Positions 2 through 15,762 of a DNA stretch of 21,873 nt are shown here, in pieces. The first letter of the stretch is position 1; every line of letters starts with the position of its first letter. The DNA is from Candidatus Hodarchaeota archaeon. GTDB taxonomy: Archaea; Asgardarchaeota; Heimdallarchaeia; Hodarchaeales; Hodarchaeaceae. The DNA lies in NCBI GenBank assembly GCA_016840035.1, contig JAEOTC010000207.1, positions 1 through 21,873 on the forward strand, in the 5' to 3' direction. A program made the position numbers and the translations under genes. Under the pieces are notes generated by a model. The model made no database searches and had not been told where the DNA came from. It saw only the letters and a program-made list of their open reading frames with translations.

Positions 2-196
2 TAATAACTCGTTTAAAGGGAGATAGGAGTATTTAATGACCATTAACGAAGATTCAATTAATGCCAATGTCTTATCAAGACCCTGTTTTGATAGAGAGGG
101 TCTAAATCCTAATTTTGTTTGGAAAGTCTTCCTGAGTAATTTTAACGCAAACTCCGCAATCATAATGGGTGGAAGTTTATCTGTAGTAATACTCAT
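2..196 (-). CDS. Partial gene (runs off the left edge): probable archaeal tRNA/RNA-binding protein (COG2517-like, N-terminal region)
   Basis: Not in the ORF track. Manual translation from ATG 196 gives MSITTDKLPPIMIAEFALKLLRKTFQTKLGFRPSLSKQGLDKTLALIESSLMVIKYSYLPLNELL with no stop before the edge. GGGGTAAG lies just upstream. The pattern T.K...AE.A..L...T...F...K...YSYL...EL resembles, from memory, the N-terminus of archaeal EMAP/tRNA_bind-domain proteins. Confidence 0.55.
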   Translation of the reverse strand, partial: MSITTDKLPPIMIAEFALKLLRKTFQTKLGFRPSLSKQGLDKTLALIESSLMVIKYSYLPLNELL

Positions 197-238
197 GAAG
201 CTTACCCCAGTACAATACAAGGAATTTTATCTGACATA

Positions 239-1273
239 TTAGGTGACATCAACAATTCCTGAAACCGTTACACCAAAAATTGCTTCATTTTCTGGTAATA
301 AAGGACTATCCACAATACGAGCGATCCTTCTTTCACCTTTTGATTTACGTAAGTAGACACGTGTCTGAGCTGCGTGGGCTACGATGTGACCACCAACTGC
401 GGTGGTTGGATCACCAAAAAACTGGTCTGGTTTAGCTTGTACCTGATTTGTGAAGATTACTGCAATATTCCAAACTTCAGCTGCATGAAGAATTGCATGA
501 ATATGCTGGTTCAGTTTCTGTTGACGCGTAGCTAAAGTACCTCTCCCGACATATTCAGCACGAAAGTGTGAAATTAATGAATCCACAACTAGAAGCTTTA
601 CGTTCTGAGAAGGAAGATACTGCTTAACCATTTTCTCAACTAATACCATTTGATGGTCTGAATTATGTGCACGGCCGTGGAGTATGTTTTCTAAGACTAA
701 ATCCATATCTAAATCATCTTTCCAGCGTTCAGCCATGTCTATAATACGTTCCGGTCTAAAAGTCCCTTCTGTATCCACATACACAGCTTTTGGATATTCA
801 TCTCCCTTTCGCAATCCACCTTTCTCTACGGGTAATTGTGTGGTTACACATAATTGATGGGCAATCTGAGTTTTTCCTGTTCTAAACTCTCCATATAGCT
901 CAGTAGCGGCACCCGTTTCAATACCACCTCCGAAAAGCTCGTCTAATCTTTGACTGCCGGTTGTAATCTTTGCTAAATCTTTTCTTCGCTCTAAAACGAC
1001 TTTAGCTGTCTCAAAATCAATGTCTAATGCCTCGCGAGCAGCTTCAATGATTTTTAGAACAGTTTTTTCCCCAAGACCTGCTAAAGATGATAGTTCTCCT
1101 ATGGAAACTGTTGCTATTGATTCCAACGATGAATAGCCAGCCTCTACCAACTTTGCTGCAGTTGAAGGCCCTATACCAGGCAAATCTGTGATAGATGTAG
1201 CTTTCTCTTCTGCCTTGGTGGTATTAGAATCACTAGATGATTCTGATTCTGTTTCTTTTTTCTTTGGGGACAT
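239..1273 (-). CDS. radA: DNA repair and recombination protein RadA (Rad51/Dmc1 family recombinase)
   Basis: N-terminal HhH domain (DLPGIGPSTAAKLVEAGY), FETA polymerisation motif, Walker A GEFRTGKT, YVDTEGTFRPERI, Walker B LLVVDS, FRAEYVGRGTLATRQQKL, NQV and GGHIVAH motifs. Confidence 0.97.
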   Translation of the reverse strand: MSPKKKETESESSSDSNTTKAEEKATSITDLPGIGPSTAAKLVEAGYSSLESIATVSIGELSSLAGLGEKTVLKIIEAAREALDIDFETAKVVLERRKDLAKITTGSQRLDELFGGGIETGAATELYGEFRTGKTQIAHQLCVTTQLPVEKGGLRKGDEYPKAVYVDTEGTFRPERIIDMAERWKDDLDMDLVLENILHGRAHNSDHQMVLVEKMVKQYLPSQNVKLLVVDSLISHFRAEYVGRGTLATRQQKLNQHIHAILHAAEVWNIAVIFTNQVQAKPDQFFGDPTTAVGGHIVAHAAQTRVYLRKSKGERRIARIVDSPLLPENEAIFGVTVSGIVDVT

Positions 1274-1710
1274 ATCTTACCCTTACCTGTTATCAACTCA
1301 ATCTACTAGATGTTTAAAGATCAAACTAATGTTTGAATAATTGTTTTCCGTATATTATTAACGTTTTTTTCCAGTTCAAGTTTATTGCCCAGAAATTATT
1401 ACTTCCTCGTTCCATCTAAGGATACTTTGGAACTATCATGATTCGGTCTTATTTGTTATAGCCAAAAAAAACTTGTTATCCATTGAAATAGTGGGAGTAT
1501 TATTCTTAATTATTATTTAGTAACTGAAGTTATTTGTCGAGAATTTAGTTCTTTATTTTACTAAACGAACAAATTGCTAGTCATTCTTTAAATCCAAATA
1601 CCAAACAATACAAAAATCCTTAAATCACTAGAGTACCCACCAAATTTTATAGAAGAAGTAGTTCCTTTTAACACTAAACATCATCTTAAAACTCAGTAAA
1701 GTGACCTAAC
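1274..1710. promoter_or_regulatory. Divergent (bidirectional) promoter region between radA and the type IV pilus operon
   Basis: 437-bp AT-rich non-coding gap between head-to-head genes. It contains a TTGTTAT direct repeat at 1453-1459 and 1473-1479. Individual TATA/BRE elements could not be assigned reliably. Confidence 0.6.
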
Positions 1711-2631
1711 TTGTTGGAGACATTGATATATTCCTATAGAAGGAAAAATCAACAAAGGTGGAATAGAAGAAGGAGAGGTGTTTCTCCTGTTCTTGCAACA
1801 GTCATTATTTTTGGCTTAATTATAACTGGAGTGATGGTAACCTTTATACAAGTAGTTCCCTTCATTGAACATGCGCAAAGCGAGCAAACAATAAGTTCAG
1901 TAAAAAATAGCTTTATTGATCTCGATGATACAATTGAATCTCTAATCAGTGAAAGTGGTAATCCTGGAGGATTTAGAACAATCTTATTTACTAAACCAGC
2001 GGGAACTCTTGAGTTTAATCCACTGGCGTATTATATTACTTTATATCTAGAGGATCAGGATGGAGAGCTAGTTCATAGTGTAGTCGACGAACTAGAAATG
2101 GGGATGCTTGATTGGATCTACAGTAGTCCAAGTACAATCATACCACGGGGAACAATGAAATATCTAACTGGTCCAGATCCGTACAAAACACGAGATCAGG
2201 CATTTATTACAGGTATGTTCTCAACTTCCGAGAACCAAGATTTGACAAACCTAACTTTAAGTCATCAATCAGACCGAAAGCATCATATCATGCTCGATTA
2301 TCGGATTTCAGTATATCTAACCGTAACTACTCAGCCCAATCCCGAAATACGGTTTCAAATATTCCTTATATCTCTAACAGCTGACTTTAGTTCAATTCAT
2401 AATCAATACAAGCAAATAACTGTCCATGTGAGTAATAATATATCTATCCCAACAACTCTAGCAATAGAATCGACCGTTTCCAAACTAGATCTTGTTATTG
2501 AAAAATCATTCACATCTACACCACCCTCCACTCTATTATGGAGTACTAGTTCAGTGAGTGGACTGAACGATCTTGATGCATTCGACATTGTAGTGCAATT
2601 GCTTAAATATGATATTAACCTTAAAACATAA
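1711..2631 (+). CDS. Type IV pilin-like protein with class III signal peptide (minor pilin/adhesin-like)
   Basis: Basic leader ending RRRRG/VSPVLATVIIFGLIITGVMVTF fits the [KR]G/xS plus hydrophobic helix pattern of archaeal prepilins. The true start may be TTG 1723, which has GGAG upstream. Confidence 0.85.
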   Translation: MLETLIYSYRRKNQQRWNRRRRGVSPVLATVIIFGLIITGVMVTFIQVVPFIEHAQSEQTISSVKNSFIDLDDTIESLISESGNPGGFRTILFTKPAGTLEFNPLAYYITLYLEDQDGELVHSVVDELEMGMLDWIYSSPSTIIPRGTMKYLTGPDPYKTRDQAFITGMFSTSENQDLTNLTLSHQSDRKHHIMLDYRISVYLTVTTQPNPEIRFQIFLISLTADFSSIHNQYKQITVHVSNNISIPTTLAIESTVSKLDLVIEKSFTSTPPSTLLWSTSSVSGLNDLDAFDIVVQLLKYDINLKT

Positions 2632-2659
2632 TAAAAATGAGTCCCTTAGGTAACTTAAT

Positions 2660-3112
2660 ATGGCTTCCCAATATATCACATTCATGATAATATTCACTCT
2701 TGGTTTAAGTTTAGTAATTATTACAAATAACATGTTTTCAACCTTGAGTGACCAATTTCGTGAAAATATTGCCCAGGTAGAATTAAATTCAATTCTGGAA
2801 CAAATTCAGTTACAGATTCAACAGAGTATGCTGATTCACCCTGAAAAAGATCAAGCTATCTATAAGAGTTTAGAGTTTCCTCCTGCGCTTGGTCAAGGAT
2901 TCCGATATACCCTAAATATAGCAAACTCATCAGACGGGAAGACGATAATTCTTAATGGGAGCACATTCAATGCTGAAGTAAACCAACAATTAGTATTCTC
3001 ATTGGGATCAGCGTATGTTGCGTCTGCTTCTGGGCATTTTACAAGCACAAACCCAATATTATCTCTCGACTTGACGAAAAATGGAAATTCAATCATTATT
3101 CGGATGTCGTAA
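2660..3112 (+). CDS. Pilin-like protein, apparently lacking the basic class III leader
   Basis: N-terminal hydrophobic helix (ASQYITFMIIFTLGLSLVII), then an amphipathic helix and a beta-rich domain (SLEFPPALGQGFRYTLNI). It lies between a pilin gene and the ATPase gene. An in-frame TAA at 2651-2653 precludes an upstream extension. Confidence 0.7.
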   Translation: MASQYITFMIIFTLGLSLVIITNNMFSTLSDQFRENIAQVELNSILEQIQLQIQQSMLIHPEKDQAIYKSLEFPPALGQGFRYTLNIANSSDGKTIILNGSTFNAEVNQQLVFSLGSAYVASASGHFTSTNPILSLDLTKNGNSIIIRMS

Positions 3113-3228
3113 TAGTTTACAATTATAATTAAAGATAAAATTAGAATAAAGATCGAAAGAAAATAAAAAAGGAGAAATAAAACGATATTTACATCAGGAT
3201 ATAATTAATCCAAAGGAGTAAGAACAAG

Positions 3229-4737
3229 ATGGCTGATTCAAGCAGTTTAATTCGTGAAACTTATCCATTAATCCCACCTTTTAGTTATGCATTGGTTGCT
3301 ACTGATCCTGACACTAAACAAACCAAATATACAGTAGTAGAAATACCTCTGAGCACGAAAGAAAAAGAAATTCTTGACATGATAAAAAATGTACTAGAAG
3401 AGGAGTTAGATGTTGATTTTAACGTCTTGAAATCTCCGGAGGTAGCTCGAGATTATCTACGTCAGAAAGTTATTGGTATAGCAAAGAACTACGGTCTAAA
3501 ACTAGATGAAAAGACTTTTGATAAAATAAATTACCATATTACACGTGATTTTGTTGGATTTGGACAAATCGATGCGATATTACGAGACCATGCTGTTGAA
3601 GATATTAGTTGCGACGGTGTTGGTATTCCGATATATATTTGGCATAGAAAATTTGAAAGCATCCAAACAAACATAAAATTTGACGAAGAAAATGATCTAG
3701 ATGCCTTTATTATTAAATTAGCTCAACGTGCAGGTAGACACATAAGCGTAGCACGGCCCTTACTTGATGCAGCTTTACCTGATGGCAGTCGACTTCAACT
3801 TACATATGGTCGGGAAGTAACCCAGAGAGGTAGTACTTTCACTATAAGAAAATTCCGTTCTGATCCTTTAACAATAACAGATATGATAACTTACAATACC
3901 TTAGATGAAGACTTGGCAGCTTTCTTATGGTATGCATTAGAAAATCGTAACTCGATAGTTATTGCAGGTGGAACAGCTGCAGGAAAAACATCTTTGCTAA
4001 ATAGTTTAGCAATGTTTATTAGACCTGGTATGAAGATTGTATCCATAGAAGATACTGCTGAATTGCATTTACCACATGAAAATTGGATTCCTTCAGTCGC
4101 AAGGGAAGGTTATGGAGGACGGGAAGCGGATGGTTCAAGACGAGGAGAAGTCTCAATGTACGACTTATTAAGGGCCGCTTTACGACAAAGGCCTGATTAC
4201 TTATTCGTAGGAGAAGTCCGTGGTTCTGAAGCATATAACCTCTTCCAAGCAATGGCAACAGGACACACTGGAATGGGTACCATTCACGGTGACAGTGTAA
4301 CAGGAACAATACGAAGATTGGAAAATGAACCAATGAATATCCCTCGAACGCTTATACAAACACTAAATCTCTTAGTAGTCCTTCGTAAAGTCCGGAGAGG
4401 AGATAAACAGGTTCGAAGAGTGATTGAATGTACAGAAATCGTTGGTATCGATCCAGTTACAACTGAAATCATCACCAACAAAGTATTTGGGTGGAATGCT
4501 CGTGAAGATGCTTATATTAACTACGGGAGATCCTATGCTTTAGAGGGTATACAAGAATCACAAGGATTAACTGAATCGCAAGTTTATGATGAAATGGAGA
4601 GGAGGAAGACAATTATGAGATGGATGGTAAAAAAGAAATTTGCTCATTTCTCACAAGTGTCTGAGGTAATCAACAGCTATTATCAAAATTCATTAGAAAC
4701 TGTAGATCGTGCAAAAAGAGAACTTAAATCTATATAG
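3229..4737 (+). CDS. Type II/IV secretion system ATPase (archaeal PilB/ArlI/TadA-type pilus assembly ATPase)
   Basis: EDISCDG, STFTIRKF, Walker A GGTAAGKTS, Asp box VSIEDTAEL, Walker B ALRQRPDYLFVGEVRG and His box AMATGH-x4-TIH. GGAG ribosome-binding site upstream. Confidence 0.95.
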   Translation: MADSSSLIRETYPLIPPFSYALVATDPDTKQTKYTVVEIPLSTKEKEILDMIKNVLEEELDVDFNVLKSPEVARDYLRQKVIGIAKNYGLKLDEKTFDKINYHITRDFVGFGQIDAILRDHAVEDISCDGVGIPIYIWHRKFESIQTNIKFDEENDLDAFIIKLAQRAGRHISVARPLLDAALPDGSRLQLTYGREVTQRGSTFTIRKFRSDPLTITDMITYNTLDEDLAAFLWYALENRNSIVIAGGTAAGKTSLLNSLAMFIRPGMKIVSIEDTAELHLPHENWIPSVAREGYGGREADGSRRGEVSMYDLLRAALRQRPDYLFVGEVRGSEAYNLFQAMATGHTGMGTIHGDSVTGTIRRLENEPMNIPRTLIQTLNLLVVLRKVRRGDKQVRRVIECTEIVGIDPVTTEIITNKVFGWNAREDAYINYGRSYALEGIQESQGLTESQVYDEMERRKTIMRWMVKKKFAHFSQVSEVINSYYQNSLETVDRAKRELKSI

Positions 4738-4762
4738 AGAATAAAATAAGGAGTACCATATT

Positions 4763-5671
4763 GTGAGCAAAGTAATTAGAAGAGTGGGATATCTTAGATT
4801 TGGTAGATTTATTGAACCTTGGATTGAAAAAGGCCGCTTTGAAAGACTTAATACTTCCTTAAAAAAAGCAGGAATGGATATCTCTGTTAGAGCTTATTTG
4901 GGAAGTGCCATTGTTAGCTCGATACTGGTTGGAATTCTTAGTTTTTTTATAACATTCGTATTATCATTCTTCTTTCTTCAAACAATCAATTCAACAATTG
5001 CAACAAACTCCTTAGTAATAAATTCCCTTCTCATAGGTTTGATAAGCGCCATAACCTGCACAATAATAACATATGTACCCTTCCTATATTGGCCACAAAT
5101 GAAAGCTGCTGATCGTAAAATTTTAATGGAATCTGGATTAACGTCAACAGCCTCATACCTTTCAGCGATGTCTAGTTCTGGAGTTCCTCCTGACCGATTA
5201 TTCTATTCCTTAGCAGGTGAGGAATCTGTTGCACCTGAAATCTCAAAGGAAAGCAAAAGAATTACAAGAGATATTGAAATTTTCGGGTATGATATTTTGA
5301 AAGCTTTACGGACTGCTAGTGAACGTTCCCCCTCGGAAAGATTTTCAAAATTTTTGGATGGTATGTCTGCTACAATAACAAGTGGTGGGGATTTAACATT
5401 CTATTTAACAGCAGAAACTAAAGCTCTTATGAAGCTTAAAGAAGAAGAAACTAAAGAATTTATTGAGCAATTAGGAGTGTTAGCTGAAATATTTATGATC
5501 ATTGGAGTTGTTGCACCACTTTTCTTTGTCGTTATTCTAGCTATTCTTGCTGTTATAAGTCCAGAAACTTCAATTGGAAGTGTGTTCATGCTTACACTCA
5601 CCTACTTTATAATGCCAATTTTATTGACGATTATGATACTGTTAATTAGTACAGTTTCACGTGAAATATGA
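4763..5671 (+). CDS. Type II secretion system F family / TadC-ArlJ-type membrane platform protein 1
   Basis: LKKAGMDIS...Y motif, multiple TM helices, DIEIFGYDILKAL...ERSPSERFSKFLDGM..TITSGGDL core. It follows the ATPase directly. GTG start with AAGGAG upstream. Confidence 0.92.
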   Translation: MSKVIRRVGYLRFGRFIEPWIEKGRFERLNTSLKKAGMDISVRAYLGSAIVSSILVGILSFFITFVLSFFFLQTINSTIATNSLVINSLLIGLISAITCTIITYVPFLYWPQMKAADRKILMESGLTSTASYLSAMSSSGVPPDRLFYSLAGEESVAPEISKESKRITRDIEIFGYDILKALRTASERSPSERFSKFLDGMSATITSGGDLTFYLTAETKALMKLKEEETKEFIEQLGVLAEIFMIIGVVAPLFFVVILAILAVISPETSIGSVFMLTLTYFIMPILLTIMILLISTVSREI

Positions 5672-5687
5672 ACTGGAGGACCAAAAA

Positions 5688-6656
5688 ATGGGAAAACTAA
5701 CTGCTAGTAAAGAAAAGAACTATTGGATAATTTCAGTTTGTCTCTTTATCCTTTTTTTGATAATTGCATCAATATTCTACATTCCTGTCATTACTCATGT
5801 CTTAGATGTAACAACTCCTACCGAGTTGGAAGAAGGGGTTGAAGCTCCTCCCCGTGATCCATTTCTATATTCTGTCCGTGAAATTTACCAGGATCCCATC
5901 ACAGGCTTTTTTGATATTATAGATGTTACAATATTCGCATGTCTTGCGTTATTACTTATACCAGCATTAGCATATAACTCTGATCAGGAATGGAGAGATG
6001 ATATTGATGACCATATTCCATCCTTACTAAGAGAGATATCCGATGCTCAAAAAACAGGTCTTCCTTTACCTAGAGCCATCATGGAGGCATCAAAGCATCA
6101 ATATGGAGCACTAACACCTGAACTAAAGAAAATGGCTTCAAAAATCAGCTGGGGTATTCCTTTTAGTGATACTTTACGTAGTCTTACAGTTACAGCAGAC
6201 ACACCTTTGATGAAACGAACATCATTATTAATTCTAGAAGCAGAACGATCAGGTGGTGCAATCGAGGAGGTTTTTGAATCCGCCCATAAACATGTTTCTG
6301 AAGTGCTAGGTTTAAAACGTGAACGTCTTGGTGCAATGAGACCTTATACATGGATTATCTATGCATCTTTCATCGTATTTGCTATTGTAATGATTATTCT
6401 TCTGTACTCCTTCTTTCAAACATTAGCGATTCAAATGGTAGATGCGGTACGTAGCCAAGAAGATCCTACAACAGCATTACCATTTAATGTGGCCGGACTA
6501 CAACTAATATTTTTTCACCTAATGGTAATTGAAGCAATTTTCGCTGGATTAATTGCTGGAAAGATGGGAGATGGAAATGCAAAAATTGGATTAAGACATT
6601 CTTGCATCTTACTAGCAATATGTTACGCTTTCTTTAAAATCACAATTCTTCTATGA
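5688..6656 (+). CDS. Type II secretion system F family / TadC-ArlJ-type membrane platform protein 2
   Basis: IPSLLREISDAQKTGLPLPRAI, YGALTPEL...ISWGIPF, EAERSGG, RERLGAMRPY and C-terminal FAGLIAGKMGDG...GLRH motifs. ATG 5688 with GGAGG at 5675-5679 is preferred over GTG 5661 from the ORF track. Confidence 0.92.
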   Translation: MGKLTASKEKNYWIISVCLFILFLIIASIFYIPVITHVLDVTTPTELEEGVEAPPRDPFLYSVREIYQDPITGFFDIIDVTIFACLALLLIPALAYNSDQEWRDDIDDHIPSLLREISDAQKTGLPLPRAIMEASKHQYGALTPELKKMASKISWGIPFSDTLRSLTVTADTPLMKRTSLLILEAERSGGAIEEVFESAHKHVSEVLGLKRERLGAMRPYTWIIYASFIVFAIVMIILLYSFFQTLAIQMVDAVRSQEDPTTALPFNVAGLQLIFFHLMVIEAIFAGLIAGKMGDGNAKIGLRHSCILLAICYAFFKITILL

Positions 6657-6676
6657 AGTATATTGAGGTAATAGTT

Positions 6677-7132
6677 TTGGGTAAAGAAGAAAAAATGTTA
6701 ATTGAGGTGTTGGAAAAAATTTCCGCTCTCGAGGATAAATTAACAAATATGGAATTTCTATTTGTACAATCTATGGGAACTGGTGGGGCCCCAAAAACCA
6801 CTGCTCCTGTTGGGGGTCCTCCTGCAGCTGTTACTGGCCCAGTTCAAGTGGATCTTGCTCCTTTGGAAAAGAAAATTGTGGAGGTTGAAGGGGCCATTGC
6901 TAAAATCAACAATAATTTTGGACCACTTAATGAATTAGTTTCAACTTTAAGCAGTGAGAAATCTCAGAAAGCTGATGAGCTAATCACCCAAGCAACTACT
7001 CTGTTAGAAAAAGGGTTACAATTGACAGAACTTGAGACCACGATGTTGGAGTTAAAAGATAGGCTGGATGAAATCACTATTCAACTTGAAGTAGCTAATG
7101 CAGGTACACCAAAAAGTGAAGAACTAATTTAG
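6677..7132 (+). CDS. Hypothetical soluble coiled-coil protein in the pilus operon
   Basis: Leu/Glu-rich heptad helices separated by a Gly/Pro/Ala/Thr linker (GTGGAPKTTAPVGGPPAAVTGP). No TM segment or signal peptide. TTG 6677 with GAGGT upstream is preferred; the ORF track start is 6653. Confidence 0.75.
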   Translation: MGKEEKMLIEVLEKISALEDKLTNMEFLFVQSMGTGGAPKTTAPVGGPPAAVTGPVQVDLAPLEKKIVEVEGAIAKINNNFGPLNELVSTLSSEKSQKADELITQATTLLEKGLQLTELETTMLELKDRLDEITIQLEVANAGTPKSEELI

Positions 7133-7175
7133 GTGATATTAACTAATAAGCGATTGTTCATTTTGAGCGGTAAAA

Positions 7176-8354
7176 ATGCTGAACGTAAACTTGAATAGAC
7201 GAAGAAGAGGTCAAATCCGAGCTATTGATTTCATAGTATCCCTGATGCTATTTCTTCTAATGTTATCCCAATTAATCTTAGTTGTGATTAATGTACAAAC
7301 TGGTTTAAATTCTCAGATGCGGGATAATTTGACATATTCAGAGCTGGATACGTTTGGTAGAACTCTCTTACAAGAAGAAGGGGAAACAGAATGGGGGTAT
7401 AGAAGATTACTCCCTAATTCTTTTGGTCTTGCAGATTCTAATACTGACACTTCTATAAACCTTGATGCAGCTAAGATCTCACGGATAATCACGGGTACTA
7501 CATTCCCTCCATCTCATATCTCGGGATTTGAACTTTTTAATTATCCAACTATCAAAACCCTAATGGGTTTAGATTCAAAAGAAGATTTTCAGCTTTCTCT
7601 CTTTCCATATCTGAATCTCACATTAATGATCACTGAAACCTCCTTTACAACATTTGATTTCTCTGTGCAAGTAACGGACACTGATGGGTTCTATTTTCTT
7701 GAACAATGTCAAATTACTTATTTTACTTTAGATCTTACAACCGGAAATGTTCGTATTGAAGGAACGGAAACCACAAATGAGATTGGGCAGGCTTCGATTG
7801 AATATACGGATCCTAATCTTAATGATCTTGGAAAACACATTAATATCGCTATAGCAAAAAAAGGTCCTTTTTGGGGAATAAACTGGGCTCATCCACCTGG
7901 AAATTATGAAGATGTTCTAATTGGTCAAGAATCAAATGCTACTGTATGGATTGGAGGTCTGAACTCTTCATCTATTCTCATTTCGGATATTCACGCACTA
8001 GAAAATGCTCCAGAGACCCATTTTCTTTCTTATATCTATGAAAACACTCAAGGAAGCTTCACAAACGAGTCTATAGAATTACCATCTTTGTACGAGGGAA
8101 ATACTACGATTAATATCCCAAATAATGGGTTATTTTTCTGTTTCAGTATAGTCAAAATGAATGATGTCTACAAAGTCGGAATAGGCACATACCCAGCAAT
8201 CTTAGATTCTGAACCTACTTTTGGTAATTTTTATCAGGTTTTTGGTAAAATTTCCGAGGGAACAAGAGAATTTGTGAAGACATCCAAGACCTATCCCGTT
8301 TATATTCGGGGAACGGTGATGAAATGTAGAATTATTCTGTGGAGGAGTCGATGA
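7176..8354 (+). CDS. Large type IV pilin-like protein with class III signal peptide
   Basis: RRRRG/QIRAIDFIVSLMLFLLMLSQLILVV leader and hydrophobic helix, followed by a beta-rich extracellular region with several N-x-S/T sequons (NLT, NAT, NSS, NES, NTT). Confidence 0.85.
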   Translation: MLNVNLNRRRRGQIRAIDFIVSLMLFLLMLSQLILVVINVQTGLNSQMRDNLTYSELDTFGRTLLQEEGETEWGYRRLLPNSFGLADSNTDTSINLDAAKISRIITGTTFPPSHISGFELFNYPTIKTLMGLDSKEDFQLSLFPYLNLTLMITETSFTTFDFSVQVTDTDGFYFLEQCQITYFTLDLTTGNVRIEGTETTNEIGQASIEYTDPNLNDLGKHINIAIAKKGPFWGINWAHPPGNYEDVLIGQESNATVWIGGLNSSSILISDIHALENAPETHFLSYIYENTQGSFTNESIELPSLYEGNTTINIPNNGLFFCFSIVKMNDVYKVGIGTYPAILDSEPTFGNFYQVFGKISEGTREFVKTSKTYPVYIRGTVMKCRIILWRSR

Positions 8355-8869
8355 TGGTAAATCATTTATTTAGAAAAGCACGTCGAGGCCAATTACAGAT
8401 TGCGGAAACACTCGTTTCAGTTTCACTAATGCTTATTCTCGCTTTGCTATTAATTAATGCGGCCGATCAAGTAAATAAAACGCAATCTGATCTAGAAAAC
8501 CTTCGTAATACTGCCTCTGACATTTTAATTACTGCAGATGAAGCCAATCTTCTGAGACCTGTGGTATACCTTCATGATCAGACAGAATATAGATCAGAGT
8601 TTAATTATCACCTTGAGGTTCTAAATGATTATATTACATTAAGTTTACGAGGGGGAGTGGGCTTTATCTTGAGAATGAGTGAAGTACAGGATAATGGAAA
8701 TGAGGATGAATATATCTATTTAATTGGTTCTCAGGCAATTATACTTTCGTTACAGCAAGGCGGAGAAAGCATTCTGTCAGATTACTTTGTAGGATCTTTC
8801 TCTTCTTCAGAATACGGACAGTACACAACACACTATATCGTTGAATTGTACTTATGGGAGAAAATTTAG
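8351..8869 (+). CDS. Type IV pilin-like protein with class III signal peptide
   Basis: RKARRG/QLQIAETLVSVSLMLILALLLI. GGAGGAG at 8341-8347 favours the ATGATG start at 8351/8354, overlapping the upstream stop. The ORF track start is 8339. Confidence 0.85.
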   Translation: MMVNHLFRKARRGQLQIAETLVSVSLMLILALLLINAADQVNKTQSDLENLRNTASDILITADEANLLRPVVYLHDQTEYRSEFNYHLEVLNDYITLSLRGGVGFILRMSEVQDNGNEDEYIYLIGSQAIILSLQQGGESILSDYFVGSFSSSEYGQYTTHYIVELYLWEKI

Positions 8870-9586
8870 ATGGTCTCAAAATTCAGTATTCGACAGAATA
8901 GACGGCGAGGACAGATGTTTATTCTAGCTACAATGCTAATAGCTGTCTATGTTGTTGCAATAAGTGCTACTGTTCTTAATATAGGCACAGACCAAATTAC
9001 ATCCAACGATGATACTCTACGTGAACCATACAATAACGTTAAGAGAGAATTACAAGCATTTATGGAAGTAATTCTAGCTAAATATACTGATAATACTACC
9101 GTTTATGACTTTTCTGACGCACGAACTGCCCTAGAATCCTTTTTACCTATAATAGAAGCTGTAGATACATCAAATTCTGTTTTAACAACTTTAAACCTTA
9201 TAGCCGACTCTTTTACAATAGAGGCAGTAATAACACCTAATTCAAACCTATCAGTGGGGACCGTGTATAGTAGCGCGATTCAAGCTCGTTTTTTCCTTGA
9301 CATGAGCACCTTTTACTCTACCATGAAGATAATTGAGGAATTTACTATTTCCTATACTGGACAAGTAGAAATCTTTGCAAATCAAATTGTAATTCAACAA
9401 TCTAGAAATTCAATTCAGAATTTCGTATCAGCTTCTCAAGTTTATATTTTAAATGGCAGCTCTCCATTATACCCAACCCTATACCCAAATGCTACAGGAC
9501 ATTATTTCTGTGAAGGCATTAGTTCAATTGACAATGTTGGGATTTTAAGCGTCACTTTTCCAAATGGAGTACGCGTTTATTCGTGA
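8870..9586 (+). CDS. Type IV pilin-like protein with class III signal peptide
   Basis: RQNRRRG/QMFILATMLIAVYVVAISATVL. The ATG abuts the upstream TAG with a 0-nt gap. Confidence 0.85.
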   Translation: MVSKFSIRQNRRRGQMFILATMLIAVYVVAISATVLNIGTDQITSNDDTLREPYNNVKRELQAFMEVILAKYTDNTTVYDFSDARTALESFLPIIEAVDTSNSVLTTLNLIADSFTIEAVITPNSNLSVGTVYSSAIQARFFLDMSTFYSTMKIIEEFTISYTGQVEIFANQIVIQQSRNSIQNFVSASQVYILNGSSPLYPTLYPNATGHYFCEGISSIDNVGILSVTFPNGVRVYS

Positions 9587-9593
9587 AACAAAA

Positions 9594-12500
9594 ATGATTG
9601 AATTAGAATTTCAAGAATATGTTGAACGGATAAAAAATTCTTTAACGGCACAAATTGGGATTGCAAATAAGGCTAGAAGTCTTAAATATGATCCAGTATC
9701 TGAAATTGAATCATTAATTACAGCATCATCAACTGGAAACATCCTAGCAATTTTAAATATTCCTGGATTAGAAAATTATCTTCCAGAAAGGATTAGTCAG
9801 CATAAAAACTTATTACTGCTCGCTGCAGATGTAGCAAAACAAATAGTGAACGGTAGGTTTATTAAAAAGGATCGAGAACATCTTATATTACAAGCAGTTC
9901 AAAGCTCGTTTGTCATTCTAAGTCGGGGTCAATGTTCAGTCCCAGAAGAATATGTCTATAAAGTTCGGATCGACCCTAAACAGAATTATCTTACATTATT
10001 CTTTACTAATACTATTCGATATGTTCCTGGAACCATCATCGGTTTAACAATTTTAATTTCTGATTATCTAAGAAGTATTTTGCATTTAAATCGCTTTCAT
10101 TCAAGTCCAGAAATAATTGGACGCTATGAGGAAGAATTAGATATCTATCTGAAGATGAATGACCGAGTCCCTCAATATAATGTTGAACATCTTAAGTTAT
10201 TCATAAAGAATATCGGCATTGAAATATCCAGTGATCCTTATGAGAGAATAGAAGTTCAGAAATATCGAAATTTACCGAAAATTACAAATCATTTACGAAT
10301 GGGTGTCTCGGTTACATTAGATCGCATTTTGCAAAGTTTAAATCCCATTATAGCTCAAAAATTAAAGTCTGGACTTCCTGAATGGGAGTGGCTAGACAAA
10401 TTACAATTTGAAGCTGGAAAACAGCATAAATCCTTTGGTAAAAGAGATATTAGAAGTACGCAACCACTTCTTTCCCAATCTAATCAAACAGGTGGGTTTA
10501 GATTGCGATATGGTGAATCAAGAACCACTGGATTTGGAACAATTGGTATTCACCCTGTCATAATGGCTCTTACAGGTATTTTAACCCCTGGATGTACAGT
10601 GCAATTAGATATATCTGATGATTATTATGCCATAAATACCGTATCCTCGATTTTTGGCCCACTCGTTGAACTTGATAATGGTTCTTTAATGAGGATTTCC
10701 ACACTAGACGAATTTCGGAAAATAGAGCGGAAAATTAACCAGATATGGGAAATGGGAGATATTTTAATTTCAATTTCAGATATTCGAGAGCCTACACCTA
10801 TTGTATTCTCTGCTTGGACGGAAGAATGGTGGAATTTAGAAATTAAAGCAGCTCTGAACTCCGAGGACAATGATGTAACAGAGCTAGAGAAAATCGGAGT
10901 AAGTGAAGATGAACTACTTCAACTACTCTTCAACCCTCTCCATTTTTATCCATCTTGGGACCTTGCTCTTGACCTTTCAAAGGTGTTAAATGTACCCCTT
11001 CACCCAAGATTTTCATTAAACTGGAATGAAATTGCAATAAGTGACTTTCTACTTCTAATTCAGAAAATAAGAGACAAATCAGAAGCCTATCTTCCTTTAG
11101 ATACTGATATATTACGGATTATCAAACAACTTGGAGTTCCTTTCAAAATTGTGGATGAAAAAATACACTCAGAAATATTTGAGCCTTTTATACCGATTTT
11201 TAGAGAGGAATCTACCAAAATTCTAGATTTATCGAATCGTGATATCAACACTTTGACAGTAGAATTATTATGTGAAGAAATGTTACAGGTTCCTATTCGC
11301 TCCTTATGCTATAAAAGGATTGGATTTAAACTCATCCGGATAGAAAAATCGGAAGCAAGATATTCAAACCCCCCTCATCATGTTATCTTTCCCTTGGGAA
11401 AATATGGGGGTCCCCAAAAAGATTTTTTCAAGCTTCCACAGGACTCGAAAACCCAAATCCGTATTGCGCATCGTTTTTGTAATTCATGTAATATAGATTC
11501 CTTCAATGCTTATTGTCCTGAATGTAAGCAGCAAACTGATCAAAAATATACATGTAGAGAAGGACATACTTCAGTTAGTTTGACTTGCGAGATTTGTGGT
11601 AAAAAAGGCTACCCTACAAAAGTAAAACCAATAAATATTAATGCAATTTTTAATTCTGGAATGAAGAAAGCAGGATCATCTGATATTAAAAAAGTAAAGG
11701 GAATGTCGTATTTGGATAACGTCTACGGCATTTCTGAAAATGTGTTGAAAGGGATTTTACGAGCAAAATATGGTATTTTTGTCTTCAAGGATGGGACATC
11801 TAGATTTAGCTGCACTAATGGTCCTATTACGGTTTATGCTCCAAGAGAGATAAATACCTCAATAGAGGAATTGAAACGACTTGGATATTTCCACGATATT
11901 TATGGCGAACCTCTAACGCGAGAGGATCAGTTAATCGAGATTTTCCCTTACGACATTGTTATAAACGAAGAAAGCCTTAAGTTTTTATTTGCACAAAGCA
12001 AATTTTTAGATGATGAACTAACTCTACACTACAGATTATCCCCTTATTATCGATTTCAATCATCTCAATCAGTGATTGGATCTCTTGTTGTGGGTATTTC
12101 CCCAACTTCACAAGTAGGAGTAATCGGAAGAATAATTGGCTATTCTACAAAAAATATATTATTTTCCCATCCGATTTGGCACCTTCTTAAATCTCGCTCT
12201 TGTAACGGAGTTTCTGACTCAATTACCCTCTTACTTGATGTTTTACTCAATTACTCCCGAGAATATATTCCTTCCTATCGTGGAGGAGCTCTAGATGTTC
12301 CCACAGTAATCAACTTAGTAGATAGCTGGACAGATCTTTTAGATTTCTCAAAAATTGACAAATTAGTCATGAATCGGATATTCTATAAGAGTATTAAAAG
12401 TAACCATTCAGATCAATCTAACCTACTTTCTAGGGAAATTTCCTTAATATCTCCTGAAAGCACCTTATTACATACCTCTACAAATATATCGGAATTTTCT

Positions 12501-12938
12501 CTCGAGAATCTATTTACTGAAAAGAAAGTTATTGATAGGATTAAAATTGCACTTGAAAGTCTCGAACACATTAGAGGAGTAGAAGAAGGAAAATACGTTG
12601 ATAATCTTTTAATAAATGATTTCCTAATAAAGATCTCAATGTCAATATCACGGTATTTTCAGCAACCAGTACGCTGCAGGTACTGTAAAACAACATACCG
12701 AAGAGTTCCATTATCTGAAAAGTGTCCCCACTGTAATAATAAAACATTAGAGCTTACATTATCTAAAGGATGGGTTCTCAGATACTTACAAATTATACAT
12801 CAGCTTTCTGAAAAATATTCAGATGATTTATCACAGTATACTAAATCTTGGATAAGGATTATTGAGTTAAATAAAAATCTCCTATTCGATGTAGGACCCC
12901 AACCGACGACTCTCATTTTTGGTGATTCTGATAAGTGA
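9594..12938 (+). CDS. polC: DNA polymerase D large subunit (DP2/PolC) homologue, full-length, highly diverged, predicted catalytically inactive
   Basis: Collinear DP2 motifs: GGFRLRYGESRTTG, GIHP, EEWW, VPLHP, IFPLGKYGG, KGILRAKY..FKDGT.R, LGY..D..G.PL, GRIIG, LLLD.LLN.SR...P..RGG..D.P and C-terminal RC..C...YRRVPL..KCP.C. The catalytic RNCDGDED motif reads RSCNGVSD. ATG 9594 is the probable start; the ORF track start is 9564. Confidence 0.93.
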   Translation: MIELEFQEYVERIKNSLTAQIGIANKARSLKYDPVSEIESLITASSTGNILAILNIPGLENYLPERISQHKNLLLLAADVAKQIVNGRFIKKDREHLILQAVQSSFVILSRGQCSVPEEYVYKVRIDPKQNYLTLFFTNTIRYVPGTIIGLTILISDYLRSILHLNRFHSSPEIIGRYEEELDIYLKMNDRVPQYNVEHLKLFIKNIGIEISSDPYERIEVQKYRNLPKITNHLRMGVSVTLDRILQSLNPIIAQKLKSGLPEWEWLDKLQFEAGKQHKSFGKRDIRSTQPLLSQSNQTGGFRLRYGESRTTGFGTIGIHPVIMALTGILTPGCTVQLDISDDYYAINTVSSIFGPLVELDNGSLMRISTLDEFRKIERKINQIWEMGDILISISDIREPTPIVFSAWTEEWWNLEIKAALNSEDNDVTELEKIGVSEDELLQLLFNPLHFYPSWDLALDLSKVLNVPLHPRFSLNWNEIAISDFLLLIQKIRDKSEAYLPLDTDILRIIKQLGVPFKIVDEKIHSEIFEPFIPIFREESTKILDLSNRDINTLTVELLCEEMLQVPIRSLCYKRIGFKLIRIEKSEARYSNPPHHVIFPLGKYGGPQKDFFKLPQDSKTQIRIAHRFCNSCNIDSFNAYCPECKQQTDQKYTCREGHTSVSLTCEICGKKGYPTKVKPININAIFNSGMKKAGSSDIKKVKGMSYLDNVYGISENVLKGILRAKYGIFVFKDGTSRFSCTNGPITVYAPREINTSIEELKRLGYFHDIYGEPLTREDQLIEIFPYDIVINEESLKFLFAQSKFLDDELTLHYRLSPYYRFQSSQSVIGSLVVGISPTSQVGVIGRIIGYSTKNILFSHPIWHLLKSRSCNGVSDSITLLLDVLLNYSREYIPSYRGGALDVPTVINLVDSWTDLLDFSKIDKLVMNRIFYKSIKSNHSDQSNLLSREISLISPESTLLHTSTNISEFSLENLFTEKKVIDRIKIALESLEHIRGVEEGKYVDNLLINDFLIKISMSISRYFQQPVRCRYCKTTYRRVPLSEKCPHCNNKTLELTLSKGWVLRYLQIIHQLSEKYSDDLSQYTKSWIRIIELNKNLLFDVGPQPTTLIFGDSDK

Positions 12939-13719: not shown

Positions 13720-15762
13720 CTAAATTCCTTGATATTGAACATCTATTATTTTCGAATTATGGGGAATAGCTTGGACAATCTCATTAAGATCAATGGCCTT
13801 TAGTTTGGCCTTTTGATCCCATGTAACAGCTTTTTTCAGAAATATTTTCTGAATTTGCTTAGCAATCTTTCCTTTAGATTCACTTCCAGGTCTAATTAGA
13901 ACTATTATTGGACTTACAGTTGAGAGCTGATCAGGAGACCCATAAATAATTTTAATATTGAATTCACTTTCTTCATATCCAATAGCAAGTTCGAGTTCAA
14001 CTCCACGGATATAATTCCTTTTCCCTCTAACCATAATCCCTCCTTTAGGTAAATATTCTCCGCTTGGAGCGGAAAAACCCACACTCTCACTGTTCACATA
14101 ATAAACATCAATTGCAGAATAACCAGCTTTCCATGCACTAGAAAAGCTTGCAGCTATTCTTGCTGCTAATTGTAAATCTTCCTCCATTAACTCATTATCA
14201 CTTGTTTCACGACTTATTATTGTGTATGGTGCGCCTTGAACATCAGCATGAAAAAAAAGATCGTCATTCCTCATTCGTCTTTTGGCTATCTCATCATTCG
14301 TGGAAATATCTTTTCCCCCAATAATCAAGAATCCATTTGGGGAAAAAGCCCAATGGAATTTTTCAAACCAGTTTCTTTTTCTCCGTTTCAAGATAATAGC
14401 ATCTGCACCCTCTTGTTCATCAATATCCTCACTTAATGAATTTATTTTAGATTTAGTCTCTAAAATGGCCTGTTCAGCTGGAATGATTTTACGTCTGGCT
14501 TTTTTTGCCTTTTCATAATAATCATTGGCAATTTCGGAGGCATTTTTCCTGAAATCTACCTCAACAACATCAAAATCTAAATCAATATTAATAGTTCCCC
14601 GTTTTGGATTAATTTTCTCAAGTAATCGAACGGATAAAATCCCTCTTTCTTTTGCTTGCTCTAGTTTCTCCAGAATTTCCTCCCAAGACACATTCTTTTT
14701 TCGTGCGTTCAATATTGTAGAAAGTAACTCATCTATATCACTGATATTTAGATAAATCGCATCTCCAATTCTTTTGTATATTTCTTGTCGATTTTTATGA
14801 CGATTCAATGTCTCTAACTGAGCTTGATACACCTTTTCATACTGTTCTTTCTTCCGTTGATATCGGTTTAATCCTGGGGAGATAACTGGCCTAACATTCG
14901 AATAGTAGAAATCTAACGCCCCAGAAAATGAATCAAAATGTTTTAACTGGTGAGGATTCGACCTATATGGAATAGGTTGAAAAGATACAAGTTGTTCATG
15001 AGGATCTAAAGATACTGATGGCTCAAGGTTCTCTACTTCCTTTTTAATTTCATTAATGACTTTGCAAATATTAGTTATATCATCTTTAGTAATTGTTTTC
15101 GCCAATCTTTTCTTAGGAATAACCGCTCTCGCCAGTATTTCCTCCATTAATACTCCTCCTCCCCCTGTTCCTCGAGCTAATACCCGAACCACCTCTTCAT
15201 CGGCATTATCAGCTGAACCAAGGATCTTCGCAATTTCATCACTATCCATCGAAAATATTGGTTTTCCTCTGCTTGGGGGTAGAACGAACTCTTTTCCTGG
15301 TAAAAGATCTCGATGACGCATCTTTCTATACCAAGAAGCAAACACCACCTTGTTACCATCTCCTACAACAACAAAGTTGGGTTTATTTCCAAATAGTTCA
15401 ACTATTACTTTATATGTTTGTTTTCCTGCTAGTTCAATTTCCACTAGACGATCAAAATCGATCTGTTTTATATCCTTAACAAAATTTCCCTTTAAATGTG
15501 CTTTTAACGCGATAATTTTTTCTTCAGGACGATTAGGAACATTGTGCTTAAACTCTGTTATGTGAATTCTTACTCCAGGCTCAATTAAAAGGTAAGGGTT
15601 CCTATATTCTCCTTTTCCTTTTAAGTTAAGTAGAAAAAATCTATCGGAGCTATCACGATATAGATTTTCTACTCTATAACCAATGATCCCCTTAAGTTCC
15701 TTTATAATCGCAAAGATGTCTATACTCGACATTTGTTTCATAAGAGATTTACACTCCTTCAC
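13720..15762 (-). CDS. rqcH: Ribosome quality control factor Rqc2/NEMF/RqcH (NFACT family)
   Basis: N-terminal MSSIDI, QIDFDRLV and VELFG..NFVV (NFACT-N), HhH-like segment, coiled coils, NA..YYEKAKK, WFEKFHW..S..GFLIIGGKD and FFHADVQGAP (NFACT-R), APSGEYLPKG. The true start may be the downstream MKQMSS. Confidence 0.93.
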   Translation of the reverse strand: MKECKSLMKQMSSIDIFAIIKELKGIIGYRVENLYRDSSDRFFLLNLKGKGEYRNPYLLIEPGVRIHITEFKHNVPNRPEEKIIALKAHLKGNFVKDIKQIDFDRLVEIELAGKQTYKVIVELFGNKPNFVVVGDGNKVVFASWYRKMRHRDLLPGKEFVLPPSRGKPIFSMDSDEIAKILGSADNADEEVVRVLARGTGGGGVLMEEILARAVIPKKRLAKTITKDDITNICKVINEIKKEVENLEPSVSLDPHEQLVSFQPIPYRSNPHQLKHFDSFSGALDFYYSNVRPVISPGLNRYQRKKEQYEKVYQAQLETLNRHKNRQEIYKRIGDAIYLNISDIDELLSTILNARKKNVSWEEILEKLEQAKERGILSVRLLEKINPKRGTINIDLDFDVVEVDFRKNASEIANDYYEKAKKARRKIIPAEQAILETKSKINSLSEDIDEQEGADAIILKRRKRNWFEKFHWAFSPNGFLIIGGKDISTNDEIAKRRMRNDDLFFHADVQGAPYTIISRETSDNELMEEDLQLAARIAASFSSAWKAGYSAIDVYYVNSESVGFSAPSGEYLPKGGIMVRGKRNYIRGVELELAIGYEESEFNIKIIYGSPDQLSTVSPIIVLIRPGSESKGKIAKQIQKIFLKKAVTWDQKAKLKAIDLNEIVQAIPHNSKIIDVQYQGI

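Follow-up and report, generated by a model that had tools for sequence, protein, structure and literature searches.

The sole DP2 of a Hodarchaeales archaeon lacks both catalytic aspartates and is a probable non-catalytic partner of DP1

PolD is the essential replicase in most of the archaea that possess it. The present work deals with the gene of its large subunit, DP2, on a 21,873 nt stretch of DNA (contig JAEOTC010000207.1, positions 1-21,873 of the forward strand, referred to as the window) of a Candidatus Hodarchaeota archaeon of the order Hodarchaeales (assembly GCA_016840035.1). In DP2 of Pyrococcus abyssi, D956 and D958 are the two invariant aspartates of the DPBB-2 loop (Sauguet et al., 2016, PMC4996933). 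Alanine substitution of either member of this pair abolished polymerisation (alanine scan of Shen et al., 2001, summarised in PMC4996933), and P. abyssi D956 was equated with D481 of RNA polymerase II (Raia et al., 2019, PMC6355029).

The closest described case is a 'Heimdall_B3/LC3-like' group, which was reported to have an inactive DP1 (the small subunit), to be without an active DP2, or to co-occur with family-B polymerases (PolBs) bearing a C-terminal domain (CTD), while the contrasting Heimdallarchaea AB125 group 'do encode active DP2 and DP1' (Kazlauskas, Krupovic, Guglielmini, Forterre and Venclovas, 2020, Nucleic Acids Research, PMC7544198). The same study presented the DP2 alignment and inactivation in its section 20, Fig. 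7B and Supp. Fig. S16, and ascribed to the group a divergent DP1 and a B10 Pol-epsilon-N-like PolB with a Zn-binding CTD. Three later papers on Hodarchaeales polymerases and primases (PMC12680538, PMC12395588, PMC12770985) do not mention the inactivation of DP2, which is reported by PMC7544198 alone. DP2 inactivation in this lineage is thus already published and the gene in the window is one more orthologue, although the initial annotation of the window, to which no characterised inactivated DP2 was known, had regarded it as potentially novel.

Here we report that the gene encodes the only DP2 detected in its host, and that this orthologue is likely to have kept the architecture of the polymerase subunit while losing its chemistry, serving instead as a non-catalytic partner of DP1 or scaffold of the replisome. 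The frame is open over 1114 codons with zero internal stops. An alternative upstream ATG at position 9564 would yield a protein of 1124 aa and would overlap the preceding gene; the start at 9594 was favoured because the DP2 proteins of relatives measure 1112-1113 aa. All three Pfam domains of DP2 were found in N-terminal, central and catalytic order, and the closest PDB matches obtained with phmmer were DP2 of P. abyssi and Thermococcus kodakarensis (E ~1e-148). The catalytic loop aligned to P. abyssi KRRNCDGDED without gaps at a constant offset of +85, and Asn871 (AAC, 12204-12206) therefore occupies the position of D956 and Val873 (GTT, 12210-12212) that of D958. Ser874 (TCT) stands where the canonical loop has a glutamate, while Asp875 (GAC), which corresponds to D960, is kept. 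This bears out the initial annotation, which had described a full-length DP2 devoid of both catalytic aspartates, down to the codon positions and the exchange of Glu for Ser.

To place these changes, we relied on an alignment of 99 DP2 sequences that included 53 canonical and 44 Hodarchaeales-clade members. In the canonical set column 871 was occupied by Asp in 53/53 sequences and column 873 by Asp in 51/53 and by Glu in 2/53, while the third aspartate (column 875) was variable, some canonical sequences reading CDGDEA. At 169 columns at least 90% of the canonical sequences agreed; the canonical residue was kept at 121 of these in the main clade and at 107 in the subclade of the window, leaving 62 changed. 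Lost columns clustered at GR289-290, PGK341-343, RMGRPEKA579-586, HTS838-840, R867 and the first helix of the C-terminal domain. In the central domain of the window protein GR289-290 was replaced by TQ, so that the GRP motif reads TQP, PGK341-343 by SDD (10614-10622) and RMGRPEKA579-586 by KLIRIEKS (11328-11351). Upstream of the loop HTS838-840 reads TSQ and RR867-868 reads SR, and the first helix of the C-terminal domain carries H1009D and D1013K. The loss of the catalytic pair is thus accompanied by that of further near-invariant motifs (PGK, GRP, RMGRPEKA, HTS and RR). Many of the replacement residues are themselves invariant across the clade, e.g. N139, T140, D1009, K1013 and S1017. Judged from these residues, DP2 of the window would most plausibly be unable to polymerise DNA, the chemistry of its two-barrel active site having been lost.

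The overall fold appears unaffected. An AlphaFold model computed from an alignment of 50 sequences reached a predicted local distance difference test score (pLDDT) of 88.4 and a predicted template modelling (pTM) score of 0.87, and it superposed over its full length on chain B of P. abyssi PolD (Foldseek; TM 0.84, E 2e-82, 28% identity), so that the two-barrel DP2 fold is predicted to be kept over the whole length. The protein scored below both NCBIfam equivalog cut-offs (723 versus 1269 bits for PRK04023 and 611 versus 702 for TIGR00354), which fits the annotation of most of the relatives' DP2 as 'hypothetical protein'. The comparisons with TIGR00354 and with the P. abyssi structure, both of which had been proposed in the initial annotation, thus place the protein within the DP2 fold but under the family thresholds.

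In contrast to the catalytic loop, the zinc modules were retained. In Zn-III, Cys1028, Cys1031, Cys1044 and Cys1047 are all present, as are two residues, R1037 and P1039, of the K-x-RR-x-P loop that in P. abyssi touches the OB-phosphodiesterase (PDE) groove of DP1 (PMC6355029). At the C-terminus, the window tail reads GPQPTTLIFGDSDK and the tail of the clade NKxLLFDxGPxPTTL.... Neither fits the PCNA-interacting peptide (PIP) box Qxx[LI]xx[FY][FYL] of the canonical DP2 C-terminus, where motifs such as KLSDFY or SLTEFF are found, but the tail may contain a degenerate hydrophobic PIP-like motif. In T. kodakarensis, the C-terminal PIP motif mediates binding of primase and PCNA (PMC9023282).

The host genome (4.3 Mb, 293 contigs, 87% complete) contains a single DP2. 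A second, canonical DP2 with the RNCDGDED loop was searched for with the window protein and with PF24846, and both queries returned this gene alone. One DP2 orthologue was likewise found in each of 20 genomes of the same genus (45-72% identity), among them the closed genome G010 (4.9 Mb, 96% complete). The query was sensitive enough to retrieve the canonical DP2 proteins of other families in the class, to which its identity is ~30%. As one DP2 was found in the host and one in each of 20 relatives, the protein is the orthologue of the PolD large subunit and not a second paralogue. Of the proposal in the initial annotation that a second, repurposed and non-catalytic copy was at hand, the non-catalytic part most plausibly stands, while the second copy has to be abandoned.

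Next to its copy number, the conservation of the gene was analyzed. Pairwise Nei-Gojobori estimates for 13 pairs gave dN/dS values of 0.07-0.14 in 12 of them, including pairs with dS of 0.36-0.95, and of 0.27 in one near-identical pair; the DP2 gene is therefore under purifying selection and not decaying. No stop interrupts the 1114 codons, no frameshift was found and dN/dS is far from 1. Identity to the nearest relatives was 72% for DP2, whereas the adjacent CBS protein reached 83-86% and the Pol-epsilon-like PolB described below 80-83%; constraint on DP2 is looser than on these two proteins, yet clearly present. An assembly or sequencing error was ruled out, as 13 sequences of the subclade, each assembled independently, have the substitutions in common. 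Both results agree with the initial annotation, which had argued that the frame is still under selection and that a single sequencing error is not the cause. In-frame stops were flagged in four relatives, three of which lie at the natural gene end or at a contig break. In the fourth, the closed genome G016 (L009), GGA is changed to TGA at the invariant Gly237, an ATG follows directly and the remaining frame is intact, which splits DP2 into pieces of 238 and 868 aa in the same frame. The gene may be split in G016, or the TGA may have arisen recently as a nonsense mutation or be an error of sequencing.

In the tree, the 44 Hodarchaeales sequences formed a monophyletic clade (support 1.0) on a stem of 1.43 substitutions per site. 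Among the 97 internal branches (median 0.096) none exceeds this stem in length, and the B3_Heim-like subclade that includes the window has an own stem of 0.39. A long-branch clade sharing the substitutions, which the initial annotation had suggested looking for, was hence recovered. Within the clade column 871 is Asn in 41 sequences, Ser in two and Asp in one, while column 873 is Val or Ala throughout the window's subclade (13 sequences) and elsewhere Asp in 29 and Asn in two; Asp875 is invariant. DP2 of the sister family within the order (L050/G023 and L051/G022) is more degenerate, with open frames of 1029 and 1194 aa: one genome reads TANGDID and has lost the RGG motif, and the other is without a recognisable catalytic loop. 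Three other families of the class retain NCDGDED, some with inteins. The loss was thus stepwise: Asn replaced the first aspartate at the base of the order, and a later step in the B3_Heim-like subclade removed the second. The lone clade member with Asp at the first catalytic position is P0029 (metagenomic, 1095 aa; CDGDID), which is nested deep in the CNGDID clade and carries every other clade-specific substitution, and it therefore represents a reversion or variant at one site. Outside the clade, P0091 and P0095 have the loop RRDLDGEET and group with CDGDEA sequences; their acidic residues appear to be shifted by two positions (D-x-D-x-E).

The partner subunit DP1 (PF04042) was present in 19/21 genomes of the genus. 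Its apparent absence from the host genome was refuted: the Pfam search had missed it, while DP1 of a relative used as query retrieved a C-terminal fragment of 97 aa (residues 431-527), which lies right at the start of contig C41. On this contig (L048), the DP1 fragment (3-293, plus strand) and an Orc1/Cdc6 gene (296-1567, minus strand) are arranged tail to tail, 2 nt apart, and a Cdc6-like gene adjoins DP1 at every DP1 locus of the genus that was fetched. In the 12 genus sequences examined, PDE motifs I, II, IV and V of DP1 are kept (D-x-H, G-D, the His of motif IV and G-H-x-H), together with the proton-donor His, and the DP1 N-terminal domain is present in genus sequences. Phosphodiesterase motif III, however, reads GEHD for GNHD in all of the genus sequences (L036-L044, L046 and L047), which exchanges a metal ligand from Asn to Glu. 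DP1 thus retains six of its seven metal ligands; motif V was seen in the host fragment.

Besides three ordinary PolB genes, the host encodes a PolB of 2009 aa (L049, 1690-7719, minus strand, contig C117) whose top PDB matches are catalytic subunits of Pol epsilon (E 6e-50). A LAGLIDADG intein occupies approximately residues 941-1469 of this protein, and its C-terminus carries a CxxC...CxxC finger. The lengths of the orthologues in relatives, ~1440 to 2020 aa, suggest that some of them have an intein and others do not. This Pol-epsilon-like PolB was detected in 20/21 genomes of the genus and in 2/2 genomes of the sister family, but 17 genomes from other families in the class yielded no match at E 1e-20 or better, a distribution that matches that of the dead DP2.

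The features of the DP2 gene are listed in Table 1. Upstream of it, on the same strand, lies a type IV pilus-like operon (1711-9586) that ends 7 nt before the DP2 start and comprises a PilB-type ATPase (3229-4737), two T2SSF/PilC genes (4763-6656) and pilin-like DUF7289 and DUF7261 genes. The order of the two upstream pilin-like genes and the downstream CBS gene was kept in 18/18 loci of the genus that were checked. A RadA/Rad51 recombinase gene (239-1273, minus strand; PF08423, E 6e-90) is divergent from the pilus-like operon, and an NFACT-family protein (NFACT_N and NFACT-R_1) is encoded downstream of the CBS gene (13720-15762, minus strand).

Table 1. Features of the DP2 gene in the window (positions refer to the 21,873 nt stretch).
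Feature	Position	Strand	Residues or motif	Evidence or remark
DP2 (PolD large subunit) gene	9594..12938	+	1114 aa	followed by TGA stop
DP2 N-terminal domain	9615..10406	+	8-271	PF03833, E 1e-35
DP2 central domain	10443..11576	+	284-661	PF24844, E 4e-65
DP2 catalytic (DPBB-2) domain	11682..12317	+	697-908	PF24846, E 5e-68
Degenerate catalytic loop	12168..12218	+	HPIWHLLKSRSCNGVSD	translation; alignment to P. abyssi DP2
Zn-I module	11478..11525	+	Cys629/632/641/644	4/4 Cys retained (column comparison)
Zn-III module of C-terminal domain	12675..12734	+	CRYC...CPHC and YRRVP loop	fully retained
C-terminal tail	12870..12935	+	NKNLLFDVGPQPTTLIFGDSDK	conserved in clade; pLDDT <50 for residues 1103-1114

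With regard to function, we propose that DNA synthesis would have been handed over to the family-B polymerases, whereas DP2 would persist as the non-catalytic partner of DP1 and as a DNA-binding scaffold of the replisome. Such a scaffold would hold primase by the C-terminal domain of DP2 and the Cdc45-MCM-GINS (CMG) helicase by the N-terminal domain of DP1, and might also aid the exonuclease of DP1. Heimdallarchaeal PriL was found to bind the DP2 C-terminal domain in yeast two-hybrid assays, while no binding to Hodarchaeal DP1 was seen for the CTD of the Hodarchaeal Pol-epsilon-like PolB (PMC12680538). PolD of T. kodakarensis forms a bridge between primase and GINS/CMG, the DP1 N-terminal domain binding Gins51 (PMC8096248, PMC9023282). 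In its most specific form, which we put forward tentatively and consider possible at best, the dead DP2-DP1 complex would be an essential replisome organiser that links primase and CMG while the Pol-epsilon-like PolB synthesises DNA and DP1 acts in trans as an active exonuclease. If this were true, dead DP2-DP1 would be a living archaeal counterpart of the step by which eukaryotes kept only the DP2 CTD and DP1 as accessory modules. Several points weigh against a dead scaffold. The label 'dead' is deduced from the sequence together with mutants of an orthologue that is distantly related, and most members of the clade retain the second and third aspartates (CNGDID), P0029 even reading CDGDID; in lineages with these loops weak or altered catalysis may persist. 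The incompleteness of the host genome also has to be considered, and co-occurrence of the Pol-epsilon-like PolB with dead DP2 amounts to one evolutionary event and not to a statistical association. Finally, a scaffold role is proposed although the canonical C-terminal PIP motif is not recognisable in DP2 of the window.

A different emphasis is placed by the idea that the dead DP2 is mainly a DNA-holding platform which activates the Mre11-like 3'-5' exonuclease of DP1 for proofreading in trans, primer removal or end processing. The near-complete metal ligands of DP1 and its proton-donor His, both seen in each of the 12 sequences, speak for it, as do the invariant DP1-contacting Zn-III loop of DP2 and the statement that B3 DP1 'might still be active' (PMC7544198), but the same authors class DP1 of the group as inactive in part and the Asn to Glu exchange in motif III is genus-wide. 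Support of the nuclease is compatible with the scaffold role; as the main function of DP2 it seems doubtful. That DP2 continues to act as a polymerase, or acts as some other nucleotidyl transferase, through a remodelled metal site could be argued from the clade-invariant Asp875, the Asp at column 873 in most members, clade-specific acidic residues such as D1009 and D342, and the strong purifying selection. However, the residue at the D956 position is Asp in every canonical sequence and both D956 and D958 were essential in the alanine scan, while the corresponding residues of the window are uncharged. The third aspartate is dispensable, given the canonical CDGDEA sequences, and the losses extend to the PGK lysine of DPBB-1 and to the motifs GRP and RR, which leaves an active remodelled site improbable. 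The close spacing to the preceding pilin-like gene on the same strand and the gene order kept at all loci checked raise the question of whether DP2 was recruited to the upstream pilus-like operon, for instance as the DNA-handling part of an uptake machine. This is very unlikely, since the DP1-binding module is kept, DP1 adjoins Orc1/Cdc6, the two-hybrid data tie the DP2 CTD to primase (PMC12680538) and the gene order is limited to one genus-level clade.

Decay of a duplicate that has yet to gain stops was considered because of the accelerated evolution, with the very long stem and the lower identity of DP2 than of PolB and CBS, and because of the in-frame TGA at Gly237 in G016. With dN/dS of ~0.1, a frame of ~1110 codons intact in ~40 lineages, replaced positions that have been re-fixed and are clade-invariant, and a confident full-length structure model, such decay is hardly credible; even in G016 an ATG stands right after the TGA and the remaining frame is intact. 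Just as implausible is a repurposed paralogue beside a canonical catalytic DP2 elsewhere in the host genome: at 87% completeness a second copy could sit in unassembled sequence, but one DP2 match was obtained in the host and one orthologue per genome in the genus, the closed G010 included.

A non-catalytic DP2 would mean that an entire order has the chemistry of PolD switched off while a protein of 1100 aa is still under selection. Some studies place the Hodarchaeales, which carry the Pol-epsilon-like PolB, beside eukaryotes. The case is hence relevant to the takeover of replication by family-B polymerases from PolD, and to the question of why eukaryotic polymerases have preserved DP1 and the C-terminal domain of DP2. 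Beyond the published inactivation, the present analysis adds its order-wide breadth (44 sequences), the order of the two steps, an estimate of selection and a fold prediction, as well as the intact DP1 interface, the state of the DP1 motifs and a distribution that coincides exactly with that of the Pol-epsilon-like PolB.

Compared with known systems, the lineage of the window is closest to the B3/LC3-like group. DP2 of B3_Heim (P0006) is 71% identical to that of the window and both have the loop CNG[VA]xD, and the inactive DP2, divergent DP1 and B10 PolB with a Zn-binding tail are all three reproduced here. The published report covers two genomes in one sentence and a supplementary alignment, as opposed to 44 sequences in this study. 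Loss of the first catalytic aspartate occurred independently in P0078 (CSGDID) and P0079 (CGGDAD), which form a separate long-branch DP2 group. These sequences probably correspond to the published Nitrososphaeria group of GCA_002499005-like DP2 (Kazlauskas et al., 2020), and both lineage and accompanying substitutions differ from those of the window clade. With canonical DP2 (P. abyssi 6T8H, 6HMS and 8PPT; T. kodakarensis 6KNB), the window protein shares the domain order, the predicted fold (TM 0.84), Zn-I, Zn-III and the DP1-contacting RRxP loop, but it differs in the absence of D956/D958, PGK, GRP and RR, in having no recognisable PIP box and in its scores below the family cut-offs.

A replicative polymerase module that is dead yet conserved is also known from eukaryotic Pol epsilon, in the form of its inactive C-terminal half together with Dpb2, and from the inactivated PolB2 of archaea. 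Here the fold is unrelated (two-barrel DP2 versus the family-B palm) and the likeness is not one of ancestry; unlike the Pol epsilon/Dpb2 pair, Hodarchaeales DP1 has near-complete nuclease motifs. The resemblance is functional: in eukaryotes the C-terminal half of Pol epsilon pairs with a DP1-family subunit and serves replisome assembly (PMC7544198 and established knowledge), and by analogy a comparable role in assembly may be ascribed to the dead DP2 and DP1 of the Hodarchaeales.

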